64,000 nucleotides of DNA. It comes from Myxococcales bacterium. GTDB lineage: Bacteria > Myxococcota_A > UBA796 > GCA-2862545. The stretch's first letter is position 1. Every line of letters begins with the position of its first letter. Both the position numbers and the translations under genes were made by a program. The notes beneath the pieces are model-generated. The model did not search any database, had not been told where the DNA came from, and saw only the letters and a program-made list of their open reading frames with translations. The stretch spans positions 38 to 64,037 of the forward strand of contig JAHQVJ010000214.1 of the NCBI GenBank assembly GCA_019634415.1, read 5' to 3'. Positions 9,188 to 62,438 of the stretch are shown here, one piece after another.

Positions 9188-9202
9188 ATGTGTGCGATAT
9201 CG
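9188..9202. promoter_or_regulatory. ATGTGTGCGATATCG motif upstream of the first DUF4423 regulator (shared with 48920..48934)
   Basis: It matches ATGTGTTCGATATTG at 48920..48934 in 13 of 15 positions. The core CGATATCG is palindromic. Confidence 0.3.
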
Positions 9203-9224
9203 TGAGTATGACGGAGAGGGTCCG

Positions 9225-27600: not shown

Positions 27601-28019
27601 CCTGCCGTGATGGCCATCTCCTGGGTGCCGGTGATGCCCAGGATGCAGCTCACCCGGTCGCGGTCCCAGTCGTCGGCGTCCGGGTCGAGGCCAGCGTCGC
27701 GCAGGGCCTCGCGCGCGACCACCAGGCCGAGGAGCTGGCTGGTGTCGATGGACTCCAGCATCAGCGGCGGGATCCCGTACGCCATGGGATCGAAGGGCAC
27801 CTTGTCGAGGAAGCCGCCTCGCGTCACCCAGGTCTTGTCGGGAGCGGTGTGGTCGGGATCGTAGTAGTCGCTGACCGACCAGGAGTGGTCGTCGGGCACG
27901 TCCGAGATGCAGTCCCGCCTGGCCAGGATGTTGCGCCAGTAGGACTGCAGATCGGCGGACTGTGGAAACAGGCAGCCGATCCCGACGATGGCGATGGACA
28001 GCGGATCGGGCTGACGCAT
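21648..28019 (-). CDS. PfaA-like type I polyketide/PUFA-type synthase (KS-AT-ACP-ACP-KR-DH)
   Basis: It is 2123 aa with these domains:
- KS: VVDAACASS, Cys codon at 27390-27392
- AT: GHSYGE, about 26015-26032
- two tandem ACPs: LG(I/V)DSIKRVEILSAVRDE
- KR: VATGGARGVTAA
- PKS-type DH: HRIGERCVVP ... DSALQ. Confidence 0.9.
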   Translation of the reverse strand: MRQPDPLSIAIVGIGCLFPQSADLQSYWRNILARRDCISDVPDDHSWSVSDYYDPDHTAPDKTWVTRGGFLDKVPFDPMAYGIPPLMLESIDTSQLLGLVVAREALRDAGLDPDADDWDRDRVSCILGITGTQEMAITAGARLQGPIWRKSMLRCGVDPALADVVVKDIANHFPTWTEQTFPGLLGNVVSGRIANRLDLGGANAVVDAACASSLAAMQYAVSQLVSGACDVALTGGVDTLNDIFMFECFTRTPAFSATGDARPFDASADGILIGEGLAICAFKRLADAERDGDRIYAVIRGLSASSDGRHRSIYAPNPVGQAKALRRAYAQAGVSPGTIELVEAHGTGTKAGDVAEVTALSEVFSDAERDGQWCALGTVKSQIGHTKSTAGAAGLVKIALALHQRVLPPTAKIDRPNPKMGFEDSALYLSDRSRPWIRAADHPRRAAVSAFGFGGSNYHALLEEHGATEVAALSAAPTELFLVGADSPDALAQALDALGGATVTHAARAALAAWTPGEAHVAAFLARSLDELGQRVDTCKERLGGASPSPRDEVWIGRGDAAPKVAWLFPGQGSQYVEMGRTVAVRHPAVRAAFDQAEEAFRSRGWPSLAQTVFPPPAWTPEHTEAQQRDLRATEWAQPAIGALSTGLASLLDAFGVTPDVVAGHSYGELAALCAAGALDADGLMAASRIRGQLMAGDGGDRGTMAAIDGPLEGIRAVLADHPDVVLANRNHPQQGVISGPTEAVQAACSQLDREGLRSKPLTVSAAFHSPLVAEAEQPFREALDELTLRAPQLEVLSCTTAQPYPDGAEAVRDQLASQIVQPVDWVGVVEALVARDVTVFVECGPRGVLCGLTEACLDGRLATVVGLDRRGHKEHGDTQLKRVLAQLAAAGVPIDPAPLLAERAPVDPPTAGGPATVWLAGANHREPTTLEPPMPKLPSDGWGAVPSTGAPMDKPVHLEHAEPEPPAVLPEASLQASPTSAAMDGGQLAQLLESTRQTLQAFQRTQEKTAEVHSQFLDAFARANDNFARLFEAQTQLVQHVASGGTVPTPSLTTPSLPEAPSVPTPLELPVAPQPVAAAPEAPTPELLDLGRVVTSSATTQVASDLPPLLDAAAAVQASRSTAPAATAVAPTPTGPPLSDAVLTAVATKTGYPREALELSMDLESDLGIDSIKRVEILSAVRDERPDLPELDSERLSGLRTLADVVEELAKATGGAAAAAVVPAVLQVPEQPSRERMEQAVLGAVAAKTGYPLAALELSMDLESDLGVDSIKRVEILSAVRDEMPDLPELDNEAMATLRTLADVVDHLASQAAGLGFALIGSGAEGGQPALLVPPEAPSPPPATEASLPPVRSVSELASPPPADLRRAEVVVVDAPQGAPLPARGPWLVTRDVEGTLAREVVRILSERGCEVTMVDPDWSSERAVAKAVPEGLSGVVHLAAVGTTDAEGAARRVRGAFWVARATGPVPRFVVASARGGQFGRTSSTAPAEAGALSGLAKTLLAEWPDTQPLALDLGDGVDASTVVDEVLTDRRTAEVGLTTEGVHTLVTSPLQAAPPAAPDVPPLAVGDLVVATGGARGVTAACVRALARRVPVALLLLGRTPLSEAEPEWAEGVDDGELIAAYLKHEDDASPKRATTEASRVLADREIRSTLEALGTTGVAAHYASVDVRDASSVAAAVDAAVAEHGPVRGVIHGAGVLADKEIAKKSTEQFDRVWSTKVDGLSAVLDACNPDELRVVGLFSSIAGREGNAGQVDYAMANEAIVQRALDLQRQAKDALVRALDWGPWDGGMVTEGLKAHFAAQGRTVIDLSAGAEACVDELGRSGAVEVVVDGARPATGRQVRPLTPEAPWLADHRIGERCVVPAVMVLEWMTSVARDVAPSLRVGSVRDLQVLKGVVLEPGVTQVALSWEPVVPREGRHALCFELRIPGDASDRLHYRAVVELEEPGTLDPPDHEANGLAADPYPYAVDEAYQRFLFHGPALRGIDEVMGISDHGAMAWLHTSRPVRLGVSGDHWATDPVTLDSALQLMVLWVREKHGSAALPCAMGEYRQFGPLPAKRVCCHLEMEPDTSERRGRFTITLVDDEGSVVARLSRGEYTGERSLIPSFQYARSEATTTTNS
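24130..24593 (-). repeat. tandem in-frame duplication encoding the two ACP domains (297-nt period)
   Basis: Segment 24130..24296 and segment 24427..24593 are near-identical. For example, ctcgtcgcgcacggcggagaggatctcgacgcgcttgatgctgtcga occurs at 24168 and at 24465, an offset of 297 nt (99 codons). Confidence 0.85.
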
Positions 28020-28145
28020 GGGGACCCCGGTTCTCCGAAGGCGGCCCTGTAACCCTTACGGCCTGTCGCATCCGCGGTCCGTTAGACGTTGGTGGCATCC
28101 AGGACCCCTTCAGTCCGACGGTGCCCGTTCGGGCCGTGTGAGGTG

Positions 28146-30872
28146 TCAGGGGCCGGAGTGCACCGTGACCGAGACGGAGGCCTCGGACAAGGCACTGTAC
28201 AGCGCCTCGGGGCCCGACGCCGTGCGTGTGTGGGCCTTCGCGCAGTCCGCCGCCAGGGCGGCCACCTGCTCGGCACGCACGGCCGCCAGCGCCTTCGGCT
28301 CGTCGGCCAGCTGCTTCAGCGAGCCACCGCTCCGCAGCACCCACGAGGCCGTCGCGAAGGTAGCGTCGCGACCGTCGTACTGGCGGCGAAGGCGGTTGGC
28401 GGCGTTCAGCTTCGCGTAGGCCAGATCGGTGGCGTCGACGCCCTCCGACACCTCCTTCAGGATCTGCGTCCAGGTGTCGAGCACGAGGGGCACCTCCACG
28501 GGGTTTGCCAGCGTGGACAGGGTGAGCGAGGCCTCGGTGCCGGCAGGCTGGGTGAAGGCCCAGGCGCCGTAGGCCACGCCAGCCTCGTCTCGCAGCGCTG
28601 CCCAGGTGCGCTCCTGGAGTAGCGCGCGGAGCACCTGGCCCGCAGGACCCTGCTCCGTCGGGCAGAGCAAGCGCACCTGGGCCACGGAGGTGGTGGGGTT
28701 CGGCGCCAGCAACACCTCGTCCTGCCCAGCACCCGTGGCAGGGGTCGCCACACTCGGCAGCGACTCGTCCGAGCGGTCCTTCCAGTCGGAGAACCAGGAC
28801 GACGCCACGTTGGTGACCCGCTCGGGGTCCGTGGGCCCCACCACCAGCAGGATGGCGTTGGACGGCCTCCACTGCGCCTCGTGCCATGCGCGGATCTCCT
28901 TGCCACGCACGGCCCTGTAGGCATCCGCGTCGTGCCACGACACGTGCAGGCCCGGGTGGATCGACCGCTGTGCGGCCTCGTGCAGGGTGAGCCAGGGACG
29001 CTCCGTCAGGTACTCCTGGTAACGCTCCTCCCACTGCCGAGAGGGGCGGCGCTTGGACAGGTCGAGGCTGACGCGGTCGACCATGTCGCGGAGCAGGTAG
29101 AGCTGCCCGTCCAGGTTGCCGGAGCCGCCCGACAGCGACACCTCGACACCCATGCCGTCCAAGCGGGCGCGCCAGCTCCCCAGGAAGGTCGCGGGCGCCC
29201 TGTGGTTGCTGAAGCGCCCCTGTCGGTAGAACAGCTCGGTGGTGCGCCAGGACGAGCGCGCGAGCGCACTGCCGGGGGTCGCGAAGTGGCCGCCCGGGAG
29301 CAGCAGGCCCGTGCGGGCCATCGGCGCGCCAGGGGTCTGGATCGCCACGATGGTGAGGCCGTTCTCCAGCGTGTGCGCCCGGTGTCGGGCCAGGTCTGGA
29401 CTGGCGATCAGGGACGCCAGCCGTGCGGTGTCCGGGTCGGGAGGGGCCGGGCGCTCGGCGCCGGCGAGGGTGGACGTGCGCTCTCCCGACCAGCTGGCGC
29501 CGTACGCGCCGTTGGGTAGCAGCACCACCGAGGCCATGCGCTTCTTGGTGATCCAGCCGCGCAGCATGCGAGCCACCCGATCCGGATCCATGTGCGATAG
29601 CCAGCTCAGGCGATCCATCGTGGGGGTGCCCGAGCCCGTGACGTGGACGTGCTGAGCCATGTCGTGGGCACGAGAGATCAGCGAGCCGTTGCCGAAGCCG
29701 CCCTCGATCTGTCGGCGCTTGCTCGCGTAGAAGGTGTTCATCCCTCGATGGACGAGGAAGTCCAGGTCCAGGGTGGACATGTCGCCCAGGGCTTGCCGCA
29801 CGGCGGCCAGCGCGCGCTGGGGGCGCCTGCGGGTGTCCACGCTGATGGTGCAGCTGAGCAGGCTCGTGTCGGGCCTGGGCTGCAGCGTGCACCGCGTGGC
29901 GTTGGACAAGCCGTCCTCGGTGGGCATCTCGCCTACCTGCCTGGACAACAGGGACTGCAGCAGCGTGGCCGCGAAGGCCAGGGAGTAGTGGTCCCGGCGG
30001 TAGGATCCGGGCAGCGTCCAGGCCACCTGCACCACCGGCTCCTCCACGGGTGCCTGCACCTCGAGGGTGTCGGTGGTCTGGGGATCGGGCGGTAGGTGGG
30101 TGCGCTCTGGTGGCAGTCGTCGGGCACATCGGCCCTCGGTCCGGTCGGGACGTGACGGATCGACGAGCAGGCTGTGGGGGACCACCTCGCGGATCACGTC
30201 GCCGAGGGTGGAGACGTCGACGTCGCCCACCACCACCATGGTGGTCTGTGAGGGGCGCCAGTGGCGGCGCACGTAGCTCGCCAGGTCGGATAGCCCGATG
30301 GTGGCCACGGACTCGGTGGACTCGGTGATCTGAGCCAGGGGATCGTCGGGGGGCAGCGCGGCGCGAGCCACGTGGGGCACGTTCCCGAGGGGGCGACGCC
30401 ACACGCGCTCGTTCTCGAGCACCTGCTTCTCGTGCTCCATCATGGCCTCGTCCACACCCCGCAGGGGCATGACCATGCGCATGGTCTCGAGCTTGAGCAC
30501 GGAGTTGAGGGCCTGGGCGGGAGCCTCCACGTCGAAGCCCATCCAGTCCGCCGCGGTCTGGCCGTTGGACACCACGCCGAGGCGGTCGTGGTGGGCCTGC
30601 ACGGTGTGGCGCCCCACCTGGGTGTGGAACCACAGGTGCTCGGCCAGGTGCCCCACGCCCTCCTTGCCGCGCGTGGGGCGGTGGGTGTGCAGCGTGCGGA
30701 TGGCGACGAGCGGGCGGCTGGTGTCGGTCTGCGCCAGCACCCTCAGGCCCGAGGGGAAGCACAGATCGAGCACCTTGGCGGTGTTGTCCGTTTGGCGAAG
30801 GGCGAGATCGGGCTTCGTGGGACGCGCCAGGGCGTCGCCTATCCAGAGGGCTCCGACGAGCGACAACGACAT
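28146..30872 (-). CDS. secreted M16 (pitrilysin/insulinase) family zinc peptidase, fused two-half form
   Basis: It is 908 aa with a signal-like N-terminus (MSLSLVGALWIGDALA). It has the inverted zinc motif HxxEH (GHLAEHLWFH) and a downstream ENE region. GGAGGA precedes the ATG. Confidence 0.8.
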   Translation of the reverse strand: MSLSLVGALWIGDALARPTKPDLALRQTDNTAKVLDLCFPSGLRVLAQTDTSRPLVAIRTLHTHRPTRGKEGVGHLAEHLWFHTQVGRHTVQAHHDRLGVVSNGQTAADWMGFDVEAPAQALNSVLKLETMRMVMPLRGVDEAMMEHEKQVLENERVWRRPLGNVPHVARAALPPDDPLAQITESTESVATIGLSDLASYVRRHWRPSQTTMVVVGDVDVSTLGDVIREVVPHSLLVDPSRPDRTEGRCARRLPPERTHLPPDPQTTDTLEVQAPVEEPVVQVAWTLPGSYRRDHYSLAFAATLLQSLLSRQVGEMPTEDGLSNATRCTLQPRPDTSLLSCTISVDTRRRPQRALAAVRQALGDMSTLDLDFLVHRGMNTFYASKRRQIEGGFGNGSLISRAHDMAQHVHVTGSGTPTMDRLSWLSHMDPDRVARMLRGWITKKRMASVVLLPNGAYGASWSGERTSTLAGAERPAPPDPDTARLASLIASPDLARHRAHTLENGLTIVAIQTPGAPMARTGLLLPGGHFATPGSALARSSWRTTELFYRQGRFSNHRAPATFLGSWRARLDGMGVEVSLSGGSGNLDGQLYLLRDMVDRVSLDLSKRRPSRQWEERYQEYLTERPWLTLHEAAQRSIHPGLHVSWHDADAYRAVRGKEIRAWHEAQWRPSNAILLVVGPTDPERVTNVASSWFSDWKDRSDESLPSVATPATGAGQDEVLLAPNPTTSVAQVRLLCPTEQGPAGQVLRALLQERTWAALRDEAGVAYGAWAFTQPAGTEASLTLSTLANPVEVPLVLDTWTQILKEVSEGVDATDLAYAKLNAANRLRRQYDGRDATFATASWVLRSGGSLKQLADEPKALAAVRAEQVAALAADCAKAHTRTASGPEALYSALSEASVSVTVHSGP

Positions 30873-30947
30873 AGATCCTCCGAGGTCCTGGGACGGATGG
30901 CCCGCGCGGATCGGACAGCCGTCTTCAGTTCCTCGGAGAATACGGGA

Positions 30948-32342
30948 TCAGGCGGCCACGCCGTCGCCTTTGGCGTGCCCTGGGCCGTAGCGCATGATGT
31001 AGCCGATGAGCAGTGCTGAGGGCACGGCGAACAGGGCCGTGGTGAAGTAGAAGCCTGCCCAGCCCACGGTCTCGGCCAGCGGGCCCGAGGTGGTGGAGGC
31101 TGCGAGCTTGCAGAACAGCGAGTACGCCGAGCTGAACAGGGCGTACTGGGTGGCGGCGAACTCTCGCTCCGTCAGCGACGACAGGTAGGCCACGAACACG
31201 GTGCCGACGTAGCCAGCGGCCAGGTTGTCGGCGACCACCACGATCAGCAGAGCCCAGTTGGGTGGGGTGTTCACCACGGCAGTGACGTCGCCGTTGGCGG
31301 CCAGATCGAGGCCGGGCCCCGCAGCCAGGGCCAGCGCCGCGAAGGCGCCATTGGTGAGCAGCGTGATGACGGCCCCCACCAGCAGGGCGGGCATCAGCCG
31401 GAAGCGCACCGCCACGAAGCCGCCCAGGAAGCCGCCCGCCACGATGGGCCACGGACCGAAGACGCCCGTGATCAGGCCCACGGCTTCCTTGCTGTAGCCG
31501 AGGTCCGCGTAGAATGGGCTCGCCATCACGCCCATGGTGAAGTCCGACAGCCGGTAGATCGCCACCAGCGAGAGCACCGGCACCACCCACCGCCCGAAGC
31601 GGGCCACCACCTGCCAGAAGGGCTGCACGATGGCATCGCGGATCTGAAGGTACATCGGCGTGTCCGAGGCCACCTGGGGGCGCTCGGGCTCGCGGATCAG
31701 GAACACCATGCCGCCCACGAGCGTCATGGCGCCCGCCATCACGGTGTAGGCCACCAACCAGCTGAAGCGACTGGCGAGGATCAGTCCGACGCCCGCGAAC
31801 ATGATGGCCAGGCGGTACCCGAAGATGTAGACGGCTGCCATGTTGGCCTGCTCGTCGTTGGGTGCTGACTCGATGCGCCAGGCGTCCACGGCGATGTCGA
31901 GTGTGGCGCCTCCGTAGGCGAGCACGAAGGCGCCCACCAGCGTCTGGGTGAGGTTCACCTCGGGATCGGAGGTGGCGATGAGCAGTAGCCCGACGACCGT
32001 GCCGCTGATGGCGAGCAGCATCCAGCTGCGCCGCTGGCCCAGGGCCGCGGTGAGCACGGGCAGTCGCAGGCGGTCCACGAAGGGAGCCCAGAACACCTTG
32101 AGCGAGTAGGCCAGGCTCACGGCGTAGAAGCCGCCGATCACCGACCGGTCGACGCCCACCTCGCGCAGCCAGAACGACAGCTTCGAGAAGACCATCATGA
32201 GTGGAAGCCCGGAGGCGAAGCCGAGCACGAGCATCGCGGCCATGGACCACGACAAGTAGACGGCCACGAGCTCGGACCAGGAGGGGCGAGGAGGGTCGGA
32301 GGAGGTCACGGGGGATCCGGGGTCGGAGTCATGCGGGGGCAT
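30948..32342 (-). CDS. AmpG-family MFS transporter
   Basis: It has LGFASGLPL, KVFWAPFVDR and GQRRSWMLL blocks that match the AmpG N-terminal signature. It has about 12-14 hydrophobic helices. I prefer ATG 32342 over the track's TTG 32387. Confidence 0.75.
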   Translation of the reverse strand: MPPHDSDPGSPVTSSDPPRPSWSELVAVYLSWSMAAMLVLGFASGLPLMMVFSKLSFWLREVGVDRSVIGGFYAVSLAYSLKVFWAPFVDRLRLPVLTAALGQRRSWMLLAISGTVVGLLLIATSDPEVNLTQTLVGAFVLAYGGATLDIAVDAWRIESAPNDEQANMAAVYIFGYRLAIMFAGVGLILASRFSWLVAYTVMAGAMTLVGGMVFLIREPERPQVASDTPMYLQIRDAIVQPFWQVVARFGRWVVPVLSLVAIYRLSDFTMGVMASPFYADLGYSKEAVGLITGVFGPWPIVAGGFLGGFVAVRFRLMPALLVGAVITLLTNGAFAALALAAGPGLDLAANGDVTAVVNTPPNWALLIVVVADNLAAGYVGTVFVAYLSSLTEREFAATQYALFSSAYSLFCKLAASTTSGPLAETVGWAGFYFTTALFAVPSALLIGYIMRYGPGHAKGDGVAA

Positions 32343-32376
32343 CGATCCGCGTCGACGTCGCTGGACCCCATTTCCT

Positions 32377-33975
32377 TCAAGGGGCAAGGGGGCGCGGACG
32401 CCAGTGGATCGGACCTGGATCCACGCCCTGGGCCCGCAGCCAGGTCAGGCGCGTCTCGAAGGCGGCCCCCGCCATCAGGTTGGCCCCCACCACGGCCACC
32501 TGCCGGTTGTGTGGCTCGGCGAGGAAGGTGCCAGCGGTCCAGTCGTTGAAGGTGCCGATGCCCGGACCGCACCAGATTTGCAGATCCGTGCGGCGACTCT
32601 CCTCGCCCCCGATGGCCCAGCGGCTCGACAGGCCCAGGTACCAGCGGAACACGAGCGCCATCTTGTGCTTCGGATCGCCGGCTGCGCGCTCGAGCTGCGC
32701 CGGATCGCGCTCGGAGAAGAAGGCCACGCACCTCTCCCAGACCTCGTCGAAGCTCGCGCCCAGGATGCGCTGTTGCACTCGCTTGGCGTCGGCAGCTCCG
32801 ATCGCCTGAAGCGACGGGTGGGCGCGGTACAGCTCGTACAAGGTGGCCCCGCGCTGGGCGAACAGTGTGCCGCGCTTGAGCACCTGGACCTGCACGCCCC
32901 CCTCGAACATGTCCGACGCCGGCGCCATCGCCACGTCCGCCATCGAGGCTTCGGCCAGCATCCGCCGCACCAGATCGGAGGTGCCGGCCTCCACGCAGGC
33001 CTGGTGCACGGTGCCCACGAGCACGTAGGCTGCTCCCATCGCGAAGGCACCTGCGGCGGCCCGTGGCGAGCCGATGCCGCCTGCCGCTCCCACCCGCACC
33101 CGATGACCCGTCTGTGAGGCCACTCGGTCGCGCAGGGCGCACAGCAGGGGCAGCAGCACCGGCAGGGGACGGTTGTCGGTGTGCCCGCCGCTGTCGGCCT
33201 CGGCGGTGAGGTCGTCGGCCATGGGCAGCGTGGCCGCCAGCTTGGCCTCGTTGTCGCTGATGCGCCCCGCCGACACCAGCTGCCGCAGGATCTCGGTGGG
33301 GGGTGGGCGCAGGAAGCGCTCCGCCACCTCGGGACGACTCACCTTCGCGAGGATGTGCGTCTTGGGTCGCACGCTGCCGTCGGCGGCGGCCTCGAGCCCC
33401 GAGGCTCGCAGCTGCACCACCATGGGGGTGAGCCCCATGTAGGCAGAGGTGCTCACCAGGCGCACACCGCGCTCGAGGTACAGCTCCACCGTGCGCTGCT
33501 CGTGCTCGGGCTCTGCGGGGCTGTGGATGAGGTTCGCCCCCCAGGGCAGGTCTCCCACCTCGCGCTGCAGCACGTCGAGGGCGTCGGCGATGCGGGGTAG
33601 CGACAGGCCCGCGGCCCCGAAGAACCCCACCATGCCGGCGCGCGCCAGGGCGATGGCGATGTCGGTGGAGCCGATCCCGTTGGCCATCGCGCCGCCCACG
33701 TAGGCCACGCGGACCCCTGTGGAGGCTCGGAACTGGGGGTCGCCGAGGTCGTGGGGCTCGAGGGCAGGCACGTGGGCGAGCAAGGGGATGGCTCCAGCGA
33801 CGCGCCCCAGGCGGGTCTCGCCGCCTCGGGCCACGGCGGGTCCGTCCGCGGTGTGCACCACGGCGAAGGGCTCGTCGAGCTGCTCGAGCGCTCGCACCAG
33901 GGCTGCGCGGCCGGGCTCGGGGGCCGAGTCGCCGGGCACCCAGGTGCCGAGGTGGCGGGAGGACGGCTGCTGCAT
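32377..33975 (-). CDS. PfaD-like trans-acting enoyl reductase (FMN, nitronate monooxygenase fold)
   Basis: I trimmed the 812-aa ORF to ATG 33975 (MQQPSSRHLGTWVPG; ATG 33999 is an alternative). It has VAYVGGAMANGIGS, GANLIHSP and ADSGGHTDNRP blocks typical of the PfaD family. The upstream 280 codons are low-complexity shadow. Confidence 0.85.
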   Translation of the reverse strand: MQQPSSRHLGTWVPGDSAPEPGRAALVRALEQLDEPFAVVHTADGPAVARGGETRLGRVAGAIPLLAHVPALEPHDLGDPQFRASTGVRVAYVGGAMANGIGSTDIAIALARAGMVGFFGAAGLSLPRIADALDVLQREVGDLPWGANLIHSPAEPEHEQRTVELYLERGVRLVSTSAYMGLTPMVVQLRASGLEAAADGSVRPKTHILAKVSRPEVAERFLRPPPTEILRQLVSAGRISDNEAKLAATLPMADDLTAEADSGGHTDNRPLPVLLPLLCALRDRVASQTGHRVRVGAAGGIGSPRAAAGAFAMGAAYVLVGTVHQACVEAGTSDLVRRMLAEASMADVAMAPASDMFEGGVQVQVLKRGTLFAQRGATLYELYRAHPSLQAIGAADAKRVQQRILGASFDEVWERCVAFFSERDPAQLERAAGDPKHKMALVFRWYLGLSSRWAIGGEESRRTDLQIWCGPGIGTFNDWTAGTFLAEPHNRQVAVVGANLMAGAAFETRLTWLRAQGVDPGPIHWRPRPLAP

Positions 33976-34075
33976 GGTGGGCCTCGGGCTGGGGCCCATA
34001 ACGGGTCGCCTCCGAGTGTGGACGGTCAACTGGTTGCCCGATGTGTCGATGGGAGAGCGGAGCGGGGGAGAGGGC

Positions 34076-34870
34076 ATGGGCTGGTTCAAGCAACGCAGCG
34101 GCAGCCGACCGAAGAAGAGGAAGAAGACCAAGGCGCCTCGCGCGGAAGCCGCGCCTCCGGAGGCACCGGAGGTCCCGAGCCTCGTGGTGGCGGTGCGACA
34201 GGAGGGGCAGGCGGTGGTGCTCTTCCAGAACCCTCCGTCGAGCTTCCGGGCGCGGCTCGTGGTGCTGTGCGAGCAGACGGTGACCCTTCGCCTGTACGAG
34301 GTGCCCGATCCCTTGCCTGGCCCTGGACAGGTCTGCTGCGTGCAGTACTTCCACGAGGGCGGCATCGCGGTGTTCCTCGCGCCCGCGGTGGCGCTGGACG
34401 AAGACGACGAGGGGATCTTCCTGACGGTGCAGCGCCCGTCGCAGGCCGTCGGACTCGACGGTCGCCGGGCTTTTCGGATCCCCGTCGCACAAGATGAGGA
34501 CGTCCGCTGGAACATCCGGACCGAGGGTGGCCAGTTGGTGTCGGGCTCGGTGGCCGACATCAGTCGCCTCGGGGCCCACGTGGTGAGCCCCCGAGCTCCT
34601 CGTCGCGCGGAGCCACCGCAGGTCGCCGTCGGCAGCGAGGTGACCCTCCAGCTGGAGCTCCACCATGCCTCGATGGACCAGCCGCTGCGCGCCGCGGTGG
34701 CCGCTCGCGTGGTGCGGCGGAGCGAGCAGGGCTGGGGGGTGGCGTTCGACTGCCCGGCCGAGGACGCCGCGCACCCGGATCTGTCGCGGCTGGTCTCGGA
34801 GGTGGAGCGCCGCATGCTGCGGCGTCAGCGCAGCACGCGGCCCACCTTCAGCCAGGTCAAGCGCGCCTGA
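34076..34870 (+). CDS. PilZ domain protein (YcgR-like two-domain layout) with polybasic N-terminus
   Basis: It starts at ATG 34076 after GGGGGAGAGGG (ATG 34049 is an alternative). It has PilZ motifs RxxxR (GRRAFRIP) and DxSxxG (ADISRLG). The N-terminus is MGWFKQRSGSRPKKRKKTK. Confidence 0.65.
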   Translation: MGWFKQRSGSRPKKRKKTKAPRAEAAPPEAPEVPSLVVAVRQEGQAVVLFQNPPSSFRARLVVLCEQTVTLRLYEVPDPLPGPGQVCCVQYFHEGGIAVFLAPAVALDEDDEGIFLTVQRPSQAVGLDGRRAFRIPVAQDEDVRWNIRTEGGQLVSGSVADISRLGAHVVSPRAPRRAEPPQVAVGSEVTLQLELHHASMDQPLRAAVAARVVRRSEQGWGVAFDCPAEDAAHPDLSRLVSEVERRMLRRQRSTRPTFSQVKRA

Positions 34871-42753: not shown

Positions 42754-43574
42754 TGGCGGAGGAGCGCCCGACGATGCCGGAGCCGCGAGGGGCGGTGCTG
42801 GATGGGCGAGCGGCACAGCGGGCGCTGCGGGTTCGTCGGCTGGCCCCCGATCCGTCGCTGGCCCCCTTCGTGCGGCACTACTGGCTGATCGACTGGGACC
42901 TCGGAGCGCCCCACACCCAGTCCGTGCTGCCGGTGCCGGCGGCGAATCTGGTGTTCGAGGCCGACGTCCTCGTGCTCAGCGGGGTGCAGACCCGGCGCTT
43001 CGACCGCACCTTGGACGGGCGCGGGTCGGTGGTGGGGGTGCTGTTCGAGCCGGGCGGGCTGTATGCGTTCTGGCCTCGGCCGATGATCGCGCTGCGCGAC
43101 GTGACCGAGGACGCCTCGGCGCGGCTGGGGCTCGTGGCCACCGACGCCCACGAGGCGCTGCGCACGGCCGACGACGACGAGGCGCGGGCGCGTTGGCTCG
43201 ACGACTGCCTAAGGGCGCTGCACCCCGCCCCCTACGACGCCATGGACGAGGTGAACGGCTGGATGGCGCTGGCGGCGGAGCGCGCCGAGCTGCTTCGCGC
43301 GGATGCATGGGCGAAGGCAGCGGGATGCTCCCTGCGCACGCTGCAGCGACGGCTGCGGCGGTACGTGGGCGTGTCTCCCAAGGCGGTGCTGCGCCGGCAT
43401 CGGCTGCAGGAGGCGGCGGCGCGCCTGGCAGCGGGAGCGCGCATCGATCAGGCGCAGCTCGCGCTGTCGCTGGGGTACTTCGATCAGGCGCACTTCGTGC
43501 GCGACTTCCACGATGCGGTGGGCGTGCCCCCCGCAGCCTACGGAGCGCGCCAGGAAGAGCGCTCGGGCGGGTAG
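42753..43574 (+). CDS. AraC-family transcriptional regulator
   Basis: ATG 42753 overlaps the TetR stop (TGATG). It has a C-terminal AraC HTH pair (AGCSLRTLQRRLRRYVGVSPKAVLRRHRLQEA ... LGYFDQAHFVRDF). Confidence 0.8.
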   Translation: MAEERPTMPEPRGAVLDGRAAQRALRVRRLAPDPSLAPFVRHYWLIDWDLGAPHTQSVLPVPAANLVFEADVLVLSGVQTRRFDRTLDGRGSVVGVLFEPGGLYAFWPRPMIALRDVTEDASARLGLVATDAHEALRTADDDEARARWLDDCLRALHPAPYDAMDEVNGWMALAAERAELLRADAWAKAAGCSLRTLQRRLRRYVGVSPKAVLRRHRLQEAAARLAAGARIDQAQLALSLGYFDQAHFVRDFHDAVGVPPAAYGARQEERSGG

Positions 43575-43930
43575 CACAGGCTCTTGGAGCAGGCCTGCAG
43601 CTCGATCTCGCCAGCGTGGGCCGCGGTCTTCGCCTCGATGCGCACGGTGCCCTCGAGCCAGTACGACGCCGGCAGCTCCGGGTCCACCACCACCCGGCGT
43701 CCCTTGGGCACGCGTGCGGGCACGGGCTCGCCGTTCACCGTGACCTGCGGCGGCATCCCGTGGGGCTCCTTGCTGCCGTAGACGTGCAGGCCGCAGGGCA
43801 CCTCGATCTTCAACACCACGCGCTCGTGGTGGCGCTCGGCGGTGATCTGTAGATCGTCGGGGGTGTGGTCGTGCAGGCAGGCCTGTCCGGGGGGCCCGGC
43901 CGCCGCGAGGGCAGCCCACAGCAGCGTCAT
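43538..43930 (-). CDS. small secreted protein, DsbD N-terminal-like (thiol:disulfide interchange domain)
   Basis: I trimmed the start to ATG 43930 after AGGAGGA (MTLLWAALAAAG signal). It has LKIEVPCGLHVYG and a C-terminal LQACSKSLCYPPE resembling the DsbD-N/DsbC-type domain. Confidence 0.45.
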   Translation of the reverse strand: MTLLWAALAAAGPPGQACLHDHTPDDLQITAERHHERVVLKIEVPCGLHVYGSKEPHGMPPQVTVNGEPVPARVPKGRRVVVDPELPASYWLEGTVRIEAKTAAHAGEIELQACSKSLCYPPERSSWRAP

Positions 43931-44003
43931 CGTGTGTCCTCCTGGGACCGAGGTCCCACTAGCCTGTCGACCGTTACGTGGGGTGGGTGGCGCGGGAGGG
44001 CGG

Positions 44004-44747
44004 GTGGACGACGCTGAGCGGTCGCTGGTGGAGCGGATCCGCGCCGAGCCCCTGGAGGCTGCTCCTCGGCAAGTGTACGCCGACTGGCTCGACACGCAGG
44101 GGGATGCGCGGGCAGCGCTGGTGCGCGCGGATCTGGACTTCGCGGCGGGCCGTGAGCCCGACGCGGCTTGGGAGGTGCTCGCGCGTGCGGTGCACACGAC
44201 GGATCTGCAGTGGATGAGGTGGGCGCTCCATCGCTACGAGGTGATCCTCGAGGCCTACGACCCAGGGTTGAAGCTCAACGCGATCAAGGAGATCCGGCGG
44301 CTCACGGGCGTGGGGCTGAAGGAGGCCAAGGAGGCGTCGGAGTCGTTGCCGAGCACGTTGTTCGGGGGCCTCGACGCCGCGCGCGGGGCGGCTGTCCAGG
44401 GACTGTTCGAGCGCCTGCGGCACCCGACTCTTCTCACCGGCGACGTTCGGCTCGTCCTGTCCCCCTCCATGCAGCGAGCAGACGCAGCGATCTACTCGGG
44501 TCGCTGGTGCGCGGAGCTCTCCGGATCCGGTGCTGATTCGTGGGACGAGCTGTGGTCCCATCCCGACGTGGCCGTGCGCGGTGTGATGGACAGCTTGCCG
44601 GAGCATGCGCGGTTCGGGCTTCCCTGCGGGGAGGCCATCGTGGTGCGCGAGCGGCTCTGCCGTGTCGTTCCACGCGAGGTGCGGGTCAGCCTCGCGCCCC
44701 TGCATCCCAGGCCAGCGTCTCCGTCTGAGAGCCGTCGTCGTGGGTGA
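44004..44747 (+). CDS. TIGR02996 domain fused to a ribosomal protein L7/L12 C-terminal-like domain
   Basis: I chose GTG 44004 after GGGAGGG, because the track ORF start overlaps the upstream gene. The N-terminus is LVERIRAEPLEAAPRQVYADWLDTQGDARAALV. Residues encoded at about 44232-44425 (YEVILEAYDPGLKLNAIKEIRRLTGVGLKEAKEASESLPSTL) align closely with E. coli L7/L12 ([41 protein letters not shown]). Confidence 0.65.
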   Translation: MDDAERSLVERIRAEPLEAAPRQVYADWLDTQGDARAALVRADLDFAAGREPDAAWEVLARAVHTTDLQWMRWALHRYEVILEAYDPGLKLNAIKEIRRLTGVGLKEAKEASESLPSTLFGGLDAARGAAVQGLFERLRHPTLLTGDVRLVLSPSMQRADAAIYSGRWCAELSGSGADSWDELWSHPDVAVRGVMDSLPEHARFGLPCGEAIVVRERLCRVVPREVRVSLAPLHPRPASPSESRRRG

Positions 44748-45198
44748 CGATGCCCTCGGGCTGCATGCCCACCTTCAGCAGCACCCGGCGCGAGGCCAGG
44801 TTCTGGGGGGCGATGGTGGCGATGATGCGCGTCAGGCCGAAGGTGGTGGTGCCGTACTGCAGCAAGGCGGCGGCGGCCTCGGTGGCCAGGCCCTGCCCCC
44901 ACACCTCGCGCCGTAGCGCGTACTTCAGCTCGGCGTCGGGCTGGCTGCCGGGGTGCACGAGCCCCATGAAGCCGCACACCCCGGGCGTGTGGCGTAGCTC
45001 CAGCGCGAACATGCCGTAGCCCCGGGTGGCGTAGTTGCGCAGGGTGATCTCGATCCAGCGTCCACAGTCCTCGAAGGGGATGGGCTGGCCGTCGTCCACC
45101 CAGCGCATGGCCTCGGCGTCGCCGTACACGGTGAACAAGGCATCGACGTCGCCGTCGGTGAGGCGCCGGATGGTGAGTCGTTCGGTCTGCAGGATCAT
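44686..45198 (-). CDS. GNAT N-acetyltransferase, RimJ/RimL-like
   Basis: I trimmed the start to ATG 45198 (MILQTERLTIRRLT, the TERL.LR N-terminal signature). It has an acetyl-CoA motif region (REVWGQGLATEAAAALL). It lies 10 nt downstream of the hydroxylase gene. Confidence 0.75.
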   Translation of the reverse strand: MILQTERLTIRRLTDGDVDALFTVYGDAEAMRWVDDGQPIPFEDCGRWIEITLRNYATRGYGMFALELRHTPGVCGFMGLVHPGSQPDAELKYALRREVWGQGLATEAAAALLQYGTTTFGLTRIIATIAPQNLASRRVLLKVGMQPEGIVTHDDGSQTETLAWDAGARG

Positions 45199-45208
45199 GC
45201 CGCCCACC

Positions 45209-45868
45209 CTACCCAGGCTGGACCCAGCGTCGACCCAGCTCTGCCTCCACGCTGCACAGCGACAGGAACAACTCGCGCTGATCCTCGAGGGCCTCGACCT
45301 GCTCGATGGCGCGCCGCAGCGTGGCCATGAGCTCGCGGTCGCGAGGCTCGCGGAACATGCTCTGCACCCAGCCGATGGCCGCCAGGCGCTGCCCGCGAGT
45401 GATGGGCTGCACTCGGTGCAGGGCGGCGGAGTCGTAGAAGACGGCGCTGCCGGCAGCCAGCTTGAAGACCCGCTCGCCGTCCGGCGTGCGCACCACCAGC
45501 TCGCCGCCGTCGTAATTGTCGGGCTCCGACAGGAACAGGGTGTAGGAGATGTCGGCGCGGATGCCGGACTGGATGGGGTTGTCGGTGTGCCAGTCGTAGC
45601 CGTCGCCCACCTCGTAGCGGTTGATGACGGGCGCCAGCGCACGGCCCGGACGCACCCGAACCGACACCTCGGGGTGCGTCATCATGCGATCCAGCAGCTC
45701 CTTGCGCCCCTCGTCGAAGGTGTCTGCGCGGAGCTGGCCGTTGCGCTTGCTGGTCTGGCCGAAGCGACCGGCGGTCTGCCGACCTTCGTCGAAAGGCAGG
45801 GTGAGCACGGCTTGTCGACACTGCTGGGCCTCGGCCGAGGAGAGCAGGTCATCGACGACCAAGAACAT
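45209..45868 (-). CDS. Fe(II)/2-oxoglutarate-dependent PKHD-type hydroxylase (PiuC/YbiX-like)
   Basis: It starts at ATG 45868 after GGAGG (MFLVVDDLLS). It has an HxD...H facial triad context (YDWHTDN ... SAALHRVQPITRGQR). Confidence 0.75.
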   Translation of the reverse strand: MFLVVDDLLSSAEAQQCRQAVLTLPFDEGRQTAGRFGQTSKRNGQLRADTFDEGRKELLDRMMTHPEVSVRVRPGRALAPVINRYEVGDGYDWHTDNPIQSGIRADISYTLFLSEPDNYDGGELVVRTPDGERVFKLAAGSAVFYDSAALHRVQPITRGQRLAAIGWVQSMFREPRDRELMATLRRAIEQVEALEDQRELFLSLCSVEAELGRRWVQPG

Positions 45869-45893
45869 CTGGACCTCCACGGAGCGAGGAACG

Positions 45894-47309
45894 CTACCAG
45901 TCGCAGTGGCTGCTGGGGAACTTCTCGCGGGCGGACTGCATGAAGTCGAAGACGCGGCTGCGCAGCTTGATGCCGCGGTTGTCGGAGCCGGTCCAGGTGC
46001 CCTTCACGTGCGCCACGATCTGGCGGTTGCCGCCGTTGTAGTCGTAGATGGGCGAGCCGCTCTGGCCCTCGTTGGTGTCGTGGTCGTGGAACACGTACGA
46101 CACGCTGGTGGAGTCGATCTCGGCCTTCATGCCCCACATCGATCCCTTGCACTGATCGTCGGCGACGGGGGAGGAGCTCGGGCACTCCTTGCTGTGCAAG
46201 GGGTAGCCGAAGTTCCAGTGGTCGGTGCCCGCCAGGGAGTAGTCCACGCGATAGCCCAGTCCGCCGAAGGAGCAGCTGTTCGCGTTGTCGTAGAGTACCA
46301 GAACCACGAAGTCGCGCGTGTCCCAGCCGTTCTCCACATATTTCTTGTCGTAGTAGTACCACTGGATGTTCTTGTAGCCATTCGGTGTGGGGTCCCCGCC
46401 GTCGTTCACGTCGTGGATCCCGTCGGCTCCGGGCCACCAGTCGCGGGTCTTGAGGCTGCCCTCGCCGCCTCCCTCGGAGAACACACAGTGGGCTGCAGAC
46501 AACAGGTGTCGCTCCCCGTACTTCGACGCAGTGCAGCGACCCACAGGGGTCTGGTCGCGTGGCTTTCCGTTGGTCTCGAGGGATCCGATCACGCGCCAGG
46601 GGAACCGGGTCATGTCGTGGCCGCTGTAGGCCGACCGCATCGAGCGCCCGTCCCCGCCGAGCACGGCGCGCAGGCCCTGCAGCTCCACCTCCTCCTGCAG
46701 ATAGTGCGACTCGTCGGCGGCCCGGGTGTCCACGTCTCCGCGGGCGGCCCGCTCGGCCTCGAGGGATCCCTTCAGGTCGCGCGGGAGCCAGTCCCACATC
46801 TCGCCTGCGTCGTTGACGAAGGTACCCGCGAGCTCGTCCTCGTACAGCTCGCGATCCTCTTCGGCCAGCTCCTCTCGGCTCGGCTCCGCAGGCTCCTTGT
46901 CTTCGCGGGCGAGGCGGTCGCGCTCCTGCTCGTCGGCCGTGGCGATGCGCATGTAGCCAGCGAACTCGAACTGGGGATCCTCGGGATCGTCCGACAGCGA
47001 GGGCGGCACGGTGGGGATAGCACCGGTGGCCTGGTAGGCCTCGCGGCGAGCCTCGAAGAAGGCCATGTCGCGGGCGTACTGCTCCTCCTCTGCTGCGATG
47101 TCGTCGGGGAAGTCCGCCGGGTCGCCGAAGGGGAAGCTGTGGGGGGGCTCGGTGGAGCTGTCGGGCTCGGTCGTGGTGTCGGGGGGCAGGCCCGTGTCGA
47201 GCCCGGAGTCGGGGCACTCGACGTCACCGAAGCCGCAGCATCCAGAGGCCAGCAAGGCCAGCGCGGGAAGCAGTGCGATCGAGGAGCCCGTGGTTCGGGA
47301 AGGGGTCAT
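45894..47309 (-). CDS. secreted S1-family (V8/glutamyl endopeptidase-like) serine protease lipoprotein
   Basis: I trimmed the start to ATG 47309 after GGAGGA and found a lipobox (LLASGC). A long acidic propeptide-like region follows. The catalytic residues are His (LLSAAHC), Asp (RDFVVLVL) and Ser (NEGQSGSPIY). Confidence 0.75.
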   Translation of the reverse strand: MTPSRTTGSSIALLPALALLASGCCGFGDVECPDSGLDTGLPPDTTTEPDSSTEPPHSFPFGDPADFPDDIAAEEEQYARDMAFFEARREAYQATGAIPTVPPSLSDDPEDPQFEFAGYMRIATADEQERDRLAREDKEPAEPSREELAEEDRELYEDELAGTFVNDAGEMWDWLPRDLKGSLEAERAARGDVDTRAADESHYLQEEVELQGLRAVLGGDGRSMRSAYSGHDMTRFPWRVIGSLETNGKPRDQTPVGRCTASKYGERHLLSAAHCVFSEGGGEGSLKTRDWWPGADGIHDVNDGGDPTPNGYKNIQWYYYDKKYVENGWDTRDFVVLVLYDNANSCSFGGLGYRVDYSLAGTDHWNFGYPLHSKECPSSSPVADDQCKGSMWGMKAEIDSTSVSYVFHDHDTNEGQSGSPIYDYNGGNRQIVAHVKGTWTGSDNRGIKLRSRVFDFMQSAREKFPSSHCDW

Positions 47310-47429
47310 GGTGGTGCGTCCTCCTGCCTGGTGGATTGCAGGCGGTGTGCCGCACCGAGCAGCCCATTCGCGAGGTTGAACCATCCAGGAGACGCGCGGT
47401 GTGCGCGAGTGTGCGCGGGCCTGCGCGCG

Positions 47430-49045: not shown

Positions 49046-49750
49046 GTGAAGACGCTGGCCATCACACTGTTTGCTGGTCCAATGCTCGCGGCCTGCGAGG
49101 TGGGGACCGCAGCCGACGATCCCACCCGTGGGGGCAATCAAGGAGGGCAGTCGGGATCCTTGATTCCCGCACAGTGCCAGGAGGTGGATCGGGTGACTGT
49201 GGCGGATCTCGCCTGGGTGCCCGACGGCGTGGGCCACTCGGCCCAGGACGTCATCGACGTGCAGATGGGGACCTTCGAGGGTGACTTCGCGGGGCAGCCC
49301 CTCACGCTGGGGCTCGAGGTGGCAGGGCCGGTGGAGCTCGTGTACGTCGAGGTCGTCGACACGGGTAGCGGACCCAAGACGGGGCCGGCCCCGGGGGCGC
49401 CTGCGGTTCGCTGTGGCCCGTTCCAGTGGGAGATCCCCATCACCGTCACGATGCAGTCTGCGCCGGACTTCGACGAGGTGTGGGAGCTCACCATGGCAGC
49501 AGACACGGTGGACTTGGGCCGGTGGTCGGCGCGGCTGGGGGTGGGAGAGCTGCAGGGGACCTACGCGCCGAACCACGATCCAGACGAGTGGGACGAGACG
49601 TGGCTGCACGTGGACGCACAGCACGGATCAGGCGCGTGGGACGGCTCTGCCGGGTGGATCTCCCACCGCGGGTCGGATCGACCGAGCGGTCCCAGCGAGG
49701 TGACGCTGGGCGGCGGCAGCGACTTCTTCAGCGCGAGTCCGGCGCGGTAG
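49046..49750 (+). CDS. hypothetical lipoprotein
   Basis: It starts at GTG 49046 after GGAGG and has a lipobox (MLAAC). I recognise no family. It is divergent from the DUF4423 regulator. Confidence 0.5.
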   Translation: MKTLAITLFAGPMLAACEVGTAADDPTRGGNQGGQSGSLIPAQCQEVDRVTVADLAWVPDGVGHSAQDVIDVQMGTFEGDFAGQPLTLGLEVAGPVELVYVEVVDTGSGPKTGPAPGAPAVRCGPFQWEIPITVTMQSAPDFDEVWELTMAADTVDLGRWSARLGVGELQGTYAPNHDPDEWDETWLHVDAQHGSGAWDGSAGWISHRGSDRPSGPSEVTLGGGSDFFSASPAR

Positions 49751-50669
49751 CGGGGGAGGTGGACGCCGCACGGGAGCGCTGCTTGTCGAGGGTCTGGCGG
49801 AACCGCTGCTCGAGCTTGCTGGCGAACGGCCCGAACGACTCGGCGTCCACGAAGGCCAGCGGATCTCCCGAGAGCAGGGCGCGGCGTTTCGCGGCCATGT
49901 CGAAGAACTCGGGGTGGTTGGCCAGGAACACGTCGGGCTTCCAGGTGCCGATACGCTCGAAGGTGGCCTCGTAGTCGGCGGCGATGCCTGGGTATTGCTC
50001 GGGTGCGACGAGCCGGTTGCCGGCCACCGTGGCGCTGCAGAAGAACATCACGTCGTAGGACGTTCCCTCGTGCTCGGTGGTGTGCCACCACGAGGTGCAG
50101 CCGCGGGTGTGGCCCGCGGTGACGTGGGGCACGAGGGAGACGGCGCCCAGCACCACGGGCTGCTCGTCCGACAGCACCTGGTCCACCTGAACGGGTGGCA
50201 TGGCGAACATGGGGTCGTCTTCCGAGCCCAGGTGGTGACCCCCCTCGAGGGCGGAGCGATCGCCCTCGCTGGCCACCAGCACCGCACCGGTGCGACGCTT
50301 CAGCTCGGCGAGGCCGCCGCTGTGGTCCAGGTGGGCATGGCTGTTGAGCAGCCACTTCACGTCGCCGAGCGACAACCCCAGCGCCTCGATGCTCGACGCG
50401 ATCATGGGCGCGTTCTCGGGGAGCCCGCCATCGAGCAGCACGTGACCCTCGTCGGAGGTGATCAGGTAGCTGCCCAGGCCGGCGCTCCCGACGTAGTAGA
50501 CGTTGCCGAGGATCCGGAAGGGATCGATGGGCTCGAGCCACGTGTCGAACCGCTCCAGCAGCTTCGGAGAGGTGGCATAGGTCCGCGGCTCCACGGCAGG
50601 CGCCGCGACGGGCTCGGGGACTGCGGTGGGAGGCGGGGCGGCGGTGCACGCGAGCAGCAGGGTCCACAT
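49728..50669 (-). CDS. subclass B3-like metallo-beta-lactamase-fold hydrolase
   Basis: It has a signal/lipobox-like N-terminus (MWTLLLACT) and an HxHxDH motif (NSHAHLDHSGG). The flanking YYVGSAGLGSYLITSDEGHVLLDGG and GHTRGCTSW blocks are typical of B3 enzymes. Confidence 0.75.
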   Translation of the reverse strand: MWTLLLACTAAPPPTAVPEPVAAPAVEPRTYATSPKLLERFDTWLEPIDPFRILGNVYYVGSAGLGSYLITSDEGHVLLDGGLPENAPMIASSIEALGLSLGDVKWLLNSHAHLDHSGGLAELKRRTGAVLVASEGDRSALEGGHHLGSEDDPMFAMPPVQVDQVLSDEQPVVLGAVSLVPHVTAGHTRGCTSWWHTTEHEGTSYDVMFFCSATVAGNRLVAPEQYPGIAADYEATFERIGTWKPDVFLANHPEFFDMAAKRRALLSGDPLAFVDAESFGPFASKLEQRFRQTLDKQRSRAASTSPATAPDSR

Positions 50670-50737
50670 GGGGCAACGCTAGCACGGGCGTTCGACCGTC
50701 TCTCCGTGACGTTACGGCACCCGGCGCAGGAGGCAAC

Positions 50738-55668: not shown

Positions 55669-56721
55669 TCACTGCGCGAAGTCGCGTGTCACGATGCTGG
55701 ACAGACCCCAGGGCAAGCGCCAGTCGTCGTCGCGCTCGTCGTTGCTGGCGAAGAAGACGCCGAGATCGGAGTCCGGGTAGCGGATCGCCATGGCGTAGAA
55801 GATGCCGTTGCCGCCGTCGTGCCACACCTCGGGGCCGGCATCGGTGTCGCTCACCACCCAGCCGTAGCCGTAGAACGTGCTGCCGTCCTCGAACTCGCGC
55901 ACGTAGGGGGTCTGCGAGGCGTCGACGGCGTCGGCGGTCAAGGCCGTGTGGTCGCGCAGGGCCCGGTGCCACGCGAACAGGTCGTCCACCGTGGAGAGCA
56001 GGCCGCCGTTGGCGCGCAGGTTCCACCAGGGACCGTCGTCGTCCCAGTCGAACTCGAGCGGCGTCTTCCAGCGAGCCGGCCACGCGTGTCGGCCCTGGGC
56101 GATGCGCTCGTCTGGCCAGCTGGGCAGCAGGTAGCCGGTCTCGGACAGCCCCGCTGGAGCGAAGACCAGGTCCTGCAGGGCCTCCTCGTACGGCAGGCCG
56201 GTCTCGATCTCGAGGATGGCCCCGAGCAGCGAGTAGTTGTGGTTGGCGTAGCTGTAGCCGGTGGGGCTGGCGTCGGGCTGCAGGGAGCGACGGGAGATGG
56301 TGTCGATGACGTCGTCGCGGGTGATCTTGGCGTAGTCCCGGAGGAGGCTGGGATCGAGGATGCCGGACGTGTGGGTCATCAGGTCGTGCAGGGTGAGGTG
56401 GGCCTTGTCGTCGGGCAGCTCCACCCAGCGGGTGACCAGATCGTCGGGGGTGAGCACCCCTCGGTCGGCCAGCGCCATGATGCCAGCGGCCGTGAACTGC
56501 TTGGTGAGCGAGCCGATGTCGTAGACGGTGTCGCGGGCGCAGGCCACGTCGGGGCGTCGGCAGGTGCCGGAGGCGTCGGCGAGGAGCACGTCGTCTCCCT
56601 GGGTGACGAGCACCGTGCCGGCGAAGCCGTCCTCGGCGAAGGCGTCGAAGTAGCTCTGCAGATCGTGGTCTGCGGGATCGGGCAGGGGCACGTCGGTGCA
56701 GCCGAGCAGGGCGAAGAACAT
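55669..56721 (-). CDS. serine hydrolase (beta-lactamase family) lipoprotein
   Basis: I trimmed the start to ATG 56721 after GGAGG and found a lipobox (FALLGC). It has an SxxK motif (IGSLTKQF) and a YSN-like YANHNY. Confidence 0.75.
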   Translation of the reverse strand: MFFALLGCTDVPLPDPADHDLQSYFDAFAEDGFAGTVLVTQGDDVLLADASGTCRRPDVACARDTVYDIGSLTKQFTAAGIMALADRGVLTPDDLVTRWVELPDDKAHLTLHDLMTHTSGILDPSLLRDYAKITRDDVIDTISRRSLQPDASPTGYSYANHNYSLLGAILEIETGLPYEEALQDLVFAPAGLSETGYLLPSWPDERIAQGRHAWPARWKTPLEFDWDDDGPWWNLRANGGLLSTVDDLFAWHRALRDHTALTADAVDASQTPYVREFEDGSTFYGYGWVVSDTDAGPEVWHDGGNGIFYAMAIRYPDSDLGVFFASNDERDDDWRLPWGLSSIVTRDFAQ

Positions 56722-56778
56722 GGGAACCTCCAGCAACACACACGAACAGTGTGGTGACAGGTTCCGGCGGATCACGGA

Positions 56779-62423: not shown

Positions 62424-62438
62424 CTGGGAGTCTTCACC

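Follow-up and report, generated by a model that had tools for sequence, protein, structure and literature searches.

A TIGR02996 domain joined to a free-standing copy of the ribosomal L7/L12 C-terminal domain in a Myxococcales bacterium: a possible off-ribosome adaptor

In the ribosomal stalk protein bL12 (L7/L12), the C-terminal domain (CTD) binds IF2, EF-Tu, EF-G and RF3 by means of a site on helices 4 and 5 that is conserved and positively charged (PMC6753160), and residues V66-V68, K70, L80 and E82 contact the G' subdomain of EF-G (PMC5887453). Non-ribosomal bL12 domains are already documented in phages, where the CTD occurs alone or inside larger non-ribosomal proteins of up to 724 amino acids (aa) and retains the residues that contact uL11, EF-G and EF-Tu (Mizuno et al. 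2019, PMC6375957). In the vWA-MoxR conflict systems an L12/ClpS domain is inserted in vWA components (Kaur et al. 2020, PMC7159879). Here we describe a cellular gene in a 64,000-nucleotide (nt) stretch of a Myxococcales bacterium (contig JAHQVJ010000214.1; the whole stretch is referred to as the window), which encodes a TIGR02996 domain followed by a bL12 CTD without the parts that anchor bL12 to the ribosome. The protein is a diverged member of a large uncharacterised family that is visible to databases, and it keeps the residues of the bL12 binding face. From the sequence and the predicted structure, the tentative interpretation put first here is that it would act as an off-ribosome adaptor binding translational GTPases or other stalk ligands.

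The open reading frame (ORF) lies at 44004-44747 on the forward strand, where an earlier note on this DNA had placed it. Its product consists of the TIGR02996 domain (residues 1-75), one intact copy of the bL12 CTD (residues 77-154) at a fixed spacing and a probably degenerate second copy. The features of the gene are as follows.

43994-43999, + strand: GGGAGG, a Shine-Dalgarno-like motif 4 nt upstream of the GTG start, read off the sequence
44004-44747, + strand: coding sequence of the protein (247 aa, 27.3 kDa, isoelectric point (pI) 5.9, soluble), from the ORF list and translation
44004-44228, + strand: N-terminal five-helix domain, residues 1-75, modelled by AlphaFold2 (AF2) with a per-residue confidence (pLDDT) of 88-98; the TIGR02996 core, residues 5-45, is nt 44016-44138
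44232-44465, + strand: L7/L12 CTD-like fold, residues 77-154, from PF00542, the phmmer match to 1ctf, AF2 and Foldseek
44271-44342, + strand: helices 4 and 5, residues 90-113 (KLNAIKEIRRLTGVGLKEAKEASE), in gapless alignment with E. coli K65-E88; counterpart of the bL12 GTPase-binding site
44466-44744, + strand: C-terminal region, residues 155-247; a probable decayed L12-like copy (about residues 166-228), then a Pro/Ser/Arg-rich tail

The first two domains are each recognised by a curated profile. Pfam PF00542 (Ribosomal_L12 CTD), the sole Pfam match, scores 39.8 bits against a gathering threshold of 25.9 (E 5.7e-10), with residues 79-127 on positions 2-49 of the 67-position model. NCBIfam TIGR02996 scores 37.5 bits against a cutoff of 29.05, with residues 5-45 on positions 2-43 of 45, and its motif VYADWLDTQGD occupies residues 24-34. 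The earlier note had recognised both domains from the sequence alone and had proposed profile searches and a structural superposition as checks; the two curated cutoffs are exceeded and the predicted structure superposes on the L12 CTD, a result well outside what chance would give. Its span for the L12-like domain, 44232-44425, stands at the start and not at the end: the 47-residue stretch it quoted is residues 77-123, nt 44232-44372, while the whole fold reaches about residue 154, nt 44465.

A phmmer search against the PDB gave the E. coli L7/L12 CTD, 1ctf, as the top match (residues 77-132 on 7-61, E 2.4e-4). The AF2 model, built on a 59-sequence family alignment (A1), has a mean pLDDT of 80 and a predicted TM score (pTM) of 0.65, and a Foldseek search of this model against the PDB also ranked 1ctf first (target-normalised TM 0.90, root-mean-square deviation 1.4 Å, 30% identity), with the further bL12 CTDs 6gb2_BL, 2zjq_5 and 8yeq among its matches. 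An L12 CTD fold for residues 77-154 is thus supported by the model. Its predicted elements are a strand (78-85), two helices (87-101 and 105-113), a strand (117-123), a helix (125-136) and a strand (148-154), modelled at pLDDT 85-94 up to about residue 130 and in the 70s over the last strand; the domain is basic, with a pI of 8.3. The N-terminal domain is predicted to contain helices at residues 3-14, 19-31, 36-48, 52-62 and 68-74, with Y25, W28 and W70 invariant in alignment A1. Modelled alone (pLDDT 79.6), it gave no significant fold match in the PDB, the best (E 0.7) being a weak similarity to TPR-like helical hairpins.

The N-degron adaptor ClpS has a related fold, classed as ClpS-like in SCOP, and it was considered as an alternative identity for the second domain. 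It was rejected: there is no match to Pfam ClpS (PF02617), the sequence signature is that of L12, and the fold match is poorer (Foldseek TM about 0.6-0.7 at about 15% identity, compared with 0.90 for L12), so that ClpS is only a known distant fold relative.

The protein shares with the bL12 CTD (PF00542; 1ctf) its fold and its helix-4/5 residues, whereas it lacks the N-terminal domain, the hinge and the rplJ-adjacent rplKAJL-rpoBC location of bL12, and its positions outside helices 4 and 5 have drifted. As the earlier note had described, the L12 dimerisation and L10-binding domain is missing: Ribosomal_L12_N (PF16320) gave no match at E<=1, the hinge is absent, and the bL12 equivalog model TIGR00855 reaches 33.6 bits, over its CTD part only, against a cutoff of 84.4. 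Without the N-terminal domain and hinge the protein cannot sit on uL10 in the stalk.

The binding face is kept. K90, L91, I94, K95, R98, L105, E107 and K109 align with E. coli K65, V66, I69, K70, R73, L80, E82 and K84, and all eight fall in conservative classes; loss of the GTPase-contact residues had been named in the earlier note as grounds for refutation. Across the 59 proteins of alignment A1, all with TIGR02996 and an L12-like domain, the positions K90, I91, I94, R98, L105 and P116 are at least 90% conserved.

Conservation was compared between 331 non-ribosomal copies and 113 genuine bL12 CTDs, using E. coli numbering. The best-kept columns of the non-ribosomal copies are L58, K65, I66, I69, K70, R73, T76, G77, G79, L80, E82, A83, K84, E88, P91 and A103, among which K65, I66, I69, K70, R73, T76, G79, L80, E82, A83, K84, E88 and P91 have frequencies of 0.7-0.9. 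Outside helices 4 and 5, positions that are near-invariant in real bL12 have drifted: T52, F54, V71, K95, K100 and K107 are relaxed both in the copies linked to TIGR02996 and in arrays, and the loss of G62, G114 and A115 falls mainly on the TIGR02996-linked copies, being only partial in arrays. In helix 5, K81 and D85 are reduced and not lost, and the remaining helix-4/5 face is kept. A profile made from the non-ribosomal copies alone scores genuine bL12 at about 105-109 bits, and when the L12-like domain was searched by itself as a profile, matches to genuine bL12 dominated, a sign of how close the two are. The mean number of the eight key residues kept per copy is as follows.

TIGR02996-linked, first copy: mean 7.47 of 8 key residues kept
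TIGR02996-linked, second copy: mean 6.23 of 8 key residues kept
Arrays without TIGR02996: mean 7.1-7.9 of 8 key residues kept

The best-preserved copy of the TIGR02996-linked proteins is therefore the one adjoining TIGR02996, which fits the intact first and probably decayed second copy proposed here. For the C-terminal third, decay of a second L12-like copy is the probable origin, an assignment made with moderate confidence: in alignment A1, residues from about 166 to 228 line up with the second such copy of homologues, and a jackhmmer search started from residues 151-247 converged on L12-like domains. A direct profile match of residues 151-247 to the L12-like domain did not reach significance (hmmsearch E 0.023 at Z=1, and a probability of 1.5% in hhalign), this region no longer shows the helix-4/5 signature, residues 155-247 form a low-confidence tail in the AF2 model (pLDDT 50-73), and no better or frameshifted second copy was found in the other reading frames.

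The gene itself has the character of a coding sequence. The GTG start at 44004 agrees with the N-termini of homologues (MSD-EQAFL...) in alignment A1, and the stop codon is at 44745-44747. The G+C content at third codon positions (GC3) reaches 0.83 for the whole frame and 0.92 within the L12-like part, values that fit a coding frame in a genome of this composition (the window has about 70% G+C), and it is lower in the C-terminal third. A long antisense ORF at 43974-44705 is the usual shadow of high-G+C coding sequence. The same gene was called independently on a Logan contig of a plant-metagenome run, which matches window positions 43758-44979 with 100% identity. No transmembrane or signal segment was found in the protein (maximum Kyte-Doolittle hydropathy 0.82), and for want of a hydrophobic segment it is taken to be soluble and cytoplasmic. 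No match to promoter or terminator consensus sequences was found near the gene.

When 1.84 billion cluster representatives were searched exhaustively with phmmer, 897 relatives were found at E<=1e-3, including 132 at E<=1e-10 and three at E<=1e-30, the nearest being 41% identical; the fusion, whose spread the earlier note had suggested surveying, thus belongs to a large family. Most top phmmer matches are collinear with the protein, residues 5-126 aligning to their residues 4-129 (alignment A1). A close orthologue was not found: a word-index protein search with the whole sequence returned only the protein itself, and a scan of GTDB species genomes yielded true rplL genes and isolated TIGR02996 fragments. 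JGI labels the relatives 'uncharacterized protein (TIGR02996 family)' and occasionally 'ribosomal protein L7/L12', and the clusters looked up traced to metagenomes only. Literature searches for the cellular fusion of TIGR02996 with L12, for tandem L12-CTD arrays and for a function of TIGR02996 found no paper, in keeping with the statement of the earlier note that it knew of no described function for the architecture, and a survey of polymorphic toxins (PMC3482391) mentions neither L12 nor ClpS.

Among the 150 best relatives, 104 have a TIGR02996-like N-terminus followed by one to five L12-like copies, and the other 46 have two to eight L12-like copies without TIGR02996. The commonest form of the family is 220-260 aa long. 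In every listed member of 190-290 aa the L12-like domain begins at residue 70-86, which indicates that TIGR02996 and the L12-like domain form a fixed unit. The members without TIGR02996 include fusions to TIR (P0112, P0115), to a Ser/Thr kinase with three L12-like copies (P0120), to a KAP P-loop NTPase (P0142) and to LRV/HEAT repeats (P0020, P0053). Another relative, the metagenomic protein P0014 (803 aa), has a lipoprotein-type signal (…FVGC), Ser-rich linkers and six well-conserved L12-like domains, which suggests that some L12-CTD arrays act outside the cytoplasm.

The N-terminal domain is shared with the TIGR02996 'repeat-companion' proteins of Planctomycetota, as are its YADWL(E/D)ExGD motif and the Trp conserved at about residue 70. 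Those proteins usually carry leucine-rich repeats C-terminally, where this protein has its L12-like domain. They occur in Myxococcota too, and the description of the model places TIGR02996 N-terminally, ahead of a repeated C-terminal module; the arrangement here, in which an intact L12-like copy and then a probably decayed one come after an N-terminal TIGR02996, fits that placement. Named relatives come from metagenome-assembled genomes of Gemmataceae and Planctomycetaceae. The occurrence of TIGR02996, the 70% G+C and a PSD/PSCyt-domain gene in the window hint at a Planctomycetota- or Myxococcota-like source. Elsewhere TIGR02996 is joined mostly to leucine-rich repeats and also to SMI1_KNR4/SUKH, DUF1963, pentapeptide, Sel1, MshEN and CsrA modules, and P0156 combines TIGR02996, an L12-like domain and SUKH. 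Two relatives of the N-terminal domain, P0193 and P0234, carry CsrA (residues 1-51) before TIGR02996, followed in P0234 by leucine-rich repeats, an unexpected pairing of an RNA-binding regulator with an adaptor domain.

The best fold matches in BFVD are phage RplL and bL12-CTD proteins, and a weak PHROG match (E 0.0017) carries no annotation. This protein differs from the phage ones in being cellular, in its fusion to TIGR02996 and in its surroundings, which are chromosome-like, no phage genes having been seen among the annotated neighbours. The vWA-MoxR inserts and the TIR, KAP and kinase fusions are likewise non-ribosomal uses of the same domain, often in several copies; unlike these, the protein carries neither an effector nor an NTPase or vWA domain, and its neighbours include none of them.

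The positively charged helix-4/5 face being kept, binding of GTPases or other stalk ligands is the most likely mechanism. In the adaptor interpretation a translational GTPase, or some other molecule that the stalk head naturally binds, would dock on this face away from the ribosome, and a second partner would be bound by the small, helical, TPR-like TIGR02996 domain. The role of the protein would then be to tether or titrate translation factors, or to report on them, and not to join in translation. The kinase fusion P0120, by analogy, fits a use of the L12-like domain as a recruitment module.

Several points weigh against this interpretation. A single bL12 CTD binds factors weakly, and a protein with one copy would therefore be a poor sequestering agent. 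Binding of GTPases is a prediction from sequence and model, and the helix-4/5 residues are partly structural, such that their conservation alone does not establish the same ligand; the apparent conservation is also inflated, the 150 relatives analysed having been chosen by similarity to the protein. P0014 is probably located outside the cytoplasm, where EF-Tu and EF-G of the cell itself are unexpected. No RNA runs holding the sequence were found, the neighbours of the gene give no functional link to translation, and three relatives on long contigs have unrelated neighbours, with none conserved.

The nearest genes to the one described here are the following.

43538-43931, - strand: small divergent ORF with a lipoprotein-like N-terminus (MTLLWAALAAAGPPGQAC…), without a Pfam match, 72 bp from the start of the gene
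44686-45210, - strand: GNAT acetyltransferase, convergent, whose 3' end overlaps the last 62 nt of the gene
45209-45880, - strand: 2OG-Fe(II) oxygenase, the middle gene of a co-directional run of three with the GNAT and protease genes
45894-47384, - strand: trypsin-like serine protease whose N-terminal region is long and acidic, co-directional with the 2OG oxygenase and GNAT genes

Farther neighbours include TetR and an FtsX/MacB permease. No toxin, phage or defence gene was found among the annotated ORFs of the window; the flanking genes are divergent or convergent and have no toxin domains, whereas the immunity gene of a polymorphic toxin would lie beside the toxin gene and point the same way. 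A second L12-like or TIGR02996 sequence, or an rplL gene, was also not found in the window.

A possible, though unlikely, alternative is that the protein is a stalk decoy or bait in a conflict system, its free head mimicking the stalk and catching toxins or phage factors that dock on bL12. In the TIGR02996 form the outcome would be neutralisation or signalling through the second partner, and in the TIR, kinase and KAP forms it would be activation of the effector. In the TIR, KAP and Ser/Thr kinase proteins the L12-like arrays sit C-terminally, the usual position of a sensor, and P0142 adjoins a second KAP NTPase gene: at locus L013 (6220-10043 of a contig of NCBI GCA_945893145.1) P0142, which has three L12-like domains, follows a KAP NTPase of 445 aa and a 147-aa ORF, and locus L014 shows the same three-gene arrangement. 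This cluster has the look of a conflict module and is a candidate for one, and the TIR-L12 gene stands alone. Domains used in conflict provide further parallels, namely the L12/ClpS inserts of the vWA-MoxR systems (PMC7159879), a Ribosomal_L12 domain listed on one cyanobacterial orthocaspase (PMC8283722), and the fusion of TIGR02996 to immunity-type modules (SMI1_KNR4/SUKH, DUF1963, leucine-rich repeats, pentapeptide and Sel1), to which P0156 adds the L12-like domain itself. bL12 is moreover the docking point of the CRISPR-associated RNase Cami1 (PDB 8phj, which is among the sequence and fold matches of the protein; PMC12179292), and the arrays of two to eight copies overlap the four or six bL12 copies of the real stalk (PMC3299993). 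Set against a decoy, the protein has no effector Pfam domain and no PADLOC match at E<=1, neither a toxin gene nor a defence island occurs among its annotated neighbours, the three relatives share no partner gene, and neutralisation by a mimic of the stalk is not known for any bacterial toxin.

Rather more doubtful is a generic scaffold, in which the L12-like fold would be a neutral spacer, an oligomerisation module or a binder of an unrelated ligand (e.g. uL11 on the ribosome, or a protein outside translation), with no role in handling translation GTPases. Kaur et al. label the inserted domain a 'multimerizing' L12/ClpS domain (PMC7159879). The fold is common to ClpS, second copies often decay, and the lipoprotein P0014, probably outside the cytoplasm, has six copies. 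Against a scaffold stand findings from the family, where retention is selective for exposed charged residues of helices 4 and 5 and not for the whole fold, and where the family profile scores real bL12 at about 105 bits. The multimerisation of bL12 resides in its N-terminal domain, which this protein lacks.

That the gene is a decaying, non-functional remnant is improbable. In its favour, about 15 billion proteins include no relative of more than 41% identity, the second copy has degenerated, 62 nt at the 3' end are shared with the convergent gene, GC3 falls in the C-terminal third and no transcript data were found. Yet the 247-codon frame is intact and preceded by a Shine-Dalgarno-like motif, the first two domains are modelled at pLDDT 85-98, all eight key residues are kept, no frameshifted copy exists, and the length and layout match the commonest form of the family. 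A divergent but genuine ribosomal bL12, which has CTD similarity alone in its favour, is refuted by the missing uL10-binding domain and hinge, the PF16320 and TIGR00855 results and a neighbourhood that is not of the rplJL type.

The bL12 CTD is the ribosome's first contact point for IF2, EF-Tu, EF-G and RF3, and the family carries this head off the ribosome while keeping just its factor-binding face. The multiple copies of some members, resembling the stalk, and the fusions of others to TIR, kinase and NTPase domains suggest that cells may have an unexplored means of monitoring, titrating or imitating the machinery of translation. If confirmed, this would give a first functional handle on TIGR02996, which is abundant in Planctomycetota-type genomes. 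A broader proposition, for which we see only a slender chance, is that free L12-CTD domains, from single to eight-copy forms, are widespread 'stalk mimics' of conflict systems that guard or imitate the GTPase-recruiting stalk; the forms with TIGR02996 or SUKH would trap phage or toxin proteins aimed at bL12 or the translational GTPases, whereas in the other forms such proteins would set off the TIR, kinase, KAP NTPase or caspase effectors, and the present protein would be an adaptor or decoy form. The family as a whole is of moderate to high interest, and the single locus, with one intact copy and an uninformative context, of less.

Elsewhere in the window, the gene at 21648-28055 (- strand) encodes a polyketide/polyunsaturated fatty acid (PUFA)-synthase-like protein of 2135 aa with the domain order KS-AT-ACP-ACP-KR-DH, and that at 32377-34824 (- strand) encodes a FabD-helical-insert/nitronate-monooxygenase protein resembling a PfaD-like enoyl reductase. 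Between them lie genes for an M16-family peptidase (28146-30947, - strand) and an MFS transporter (30948-32444, - strand). Two PF00144 beta-lactamase-family (serine hydrolase) proteins are encoded at 7264-9297 and 55669-56778 (both - strand), and a protein with a metallo-beta-lactamase fold at 49728-50678 (- strand). The gene at 62424-63998 (+ strand), which runs past the end of the window, encodes a PSD/PSCyt-domain protein (DUF1585, DUF1588, DUF1592 and DUF1595), with domains that were first defined in Planctomycetes.

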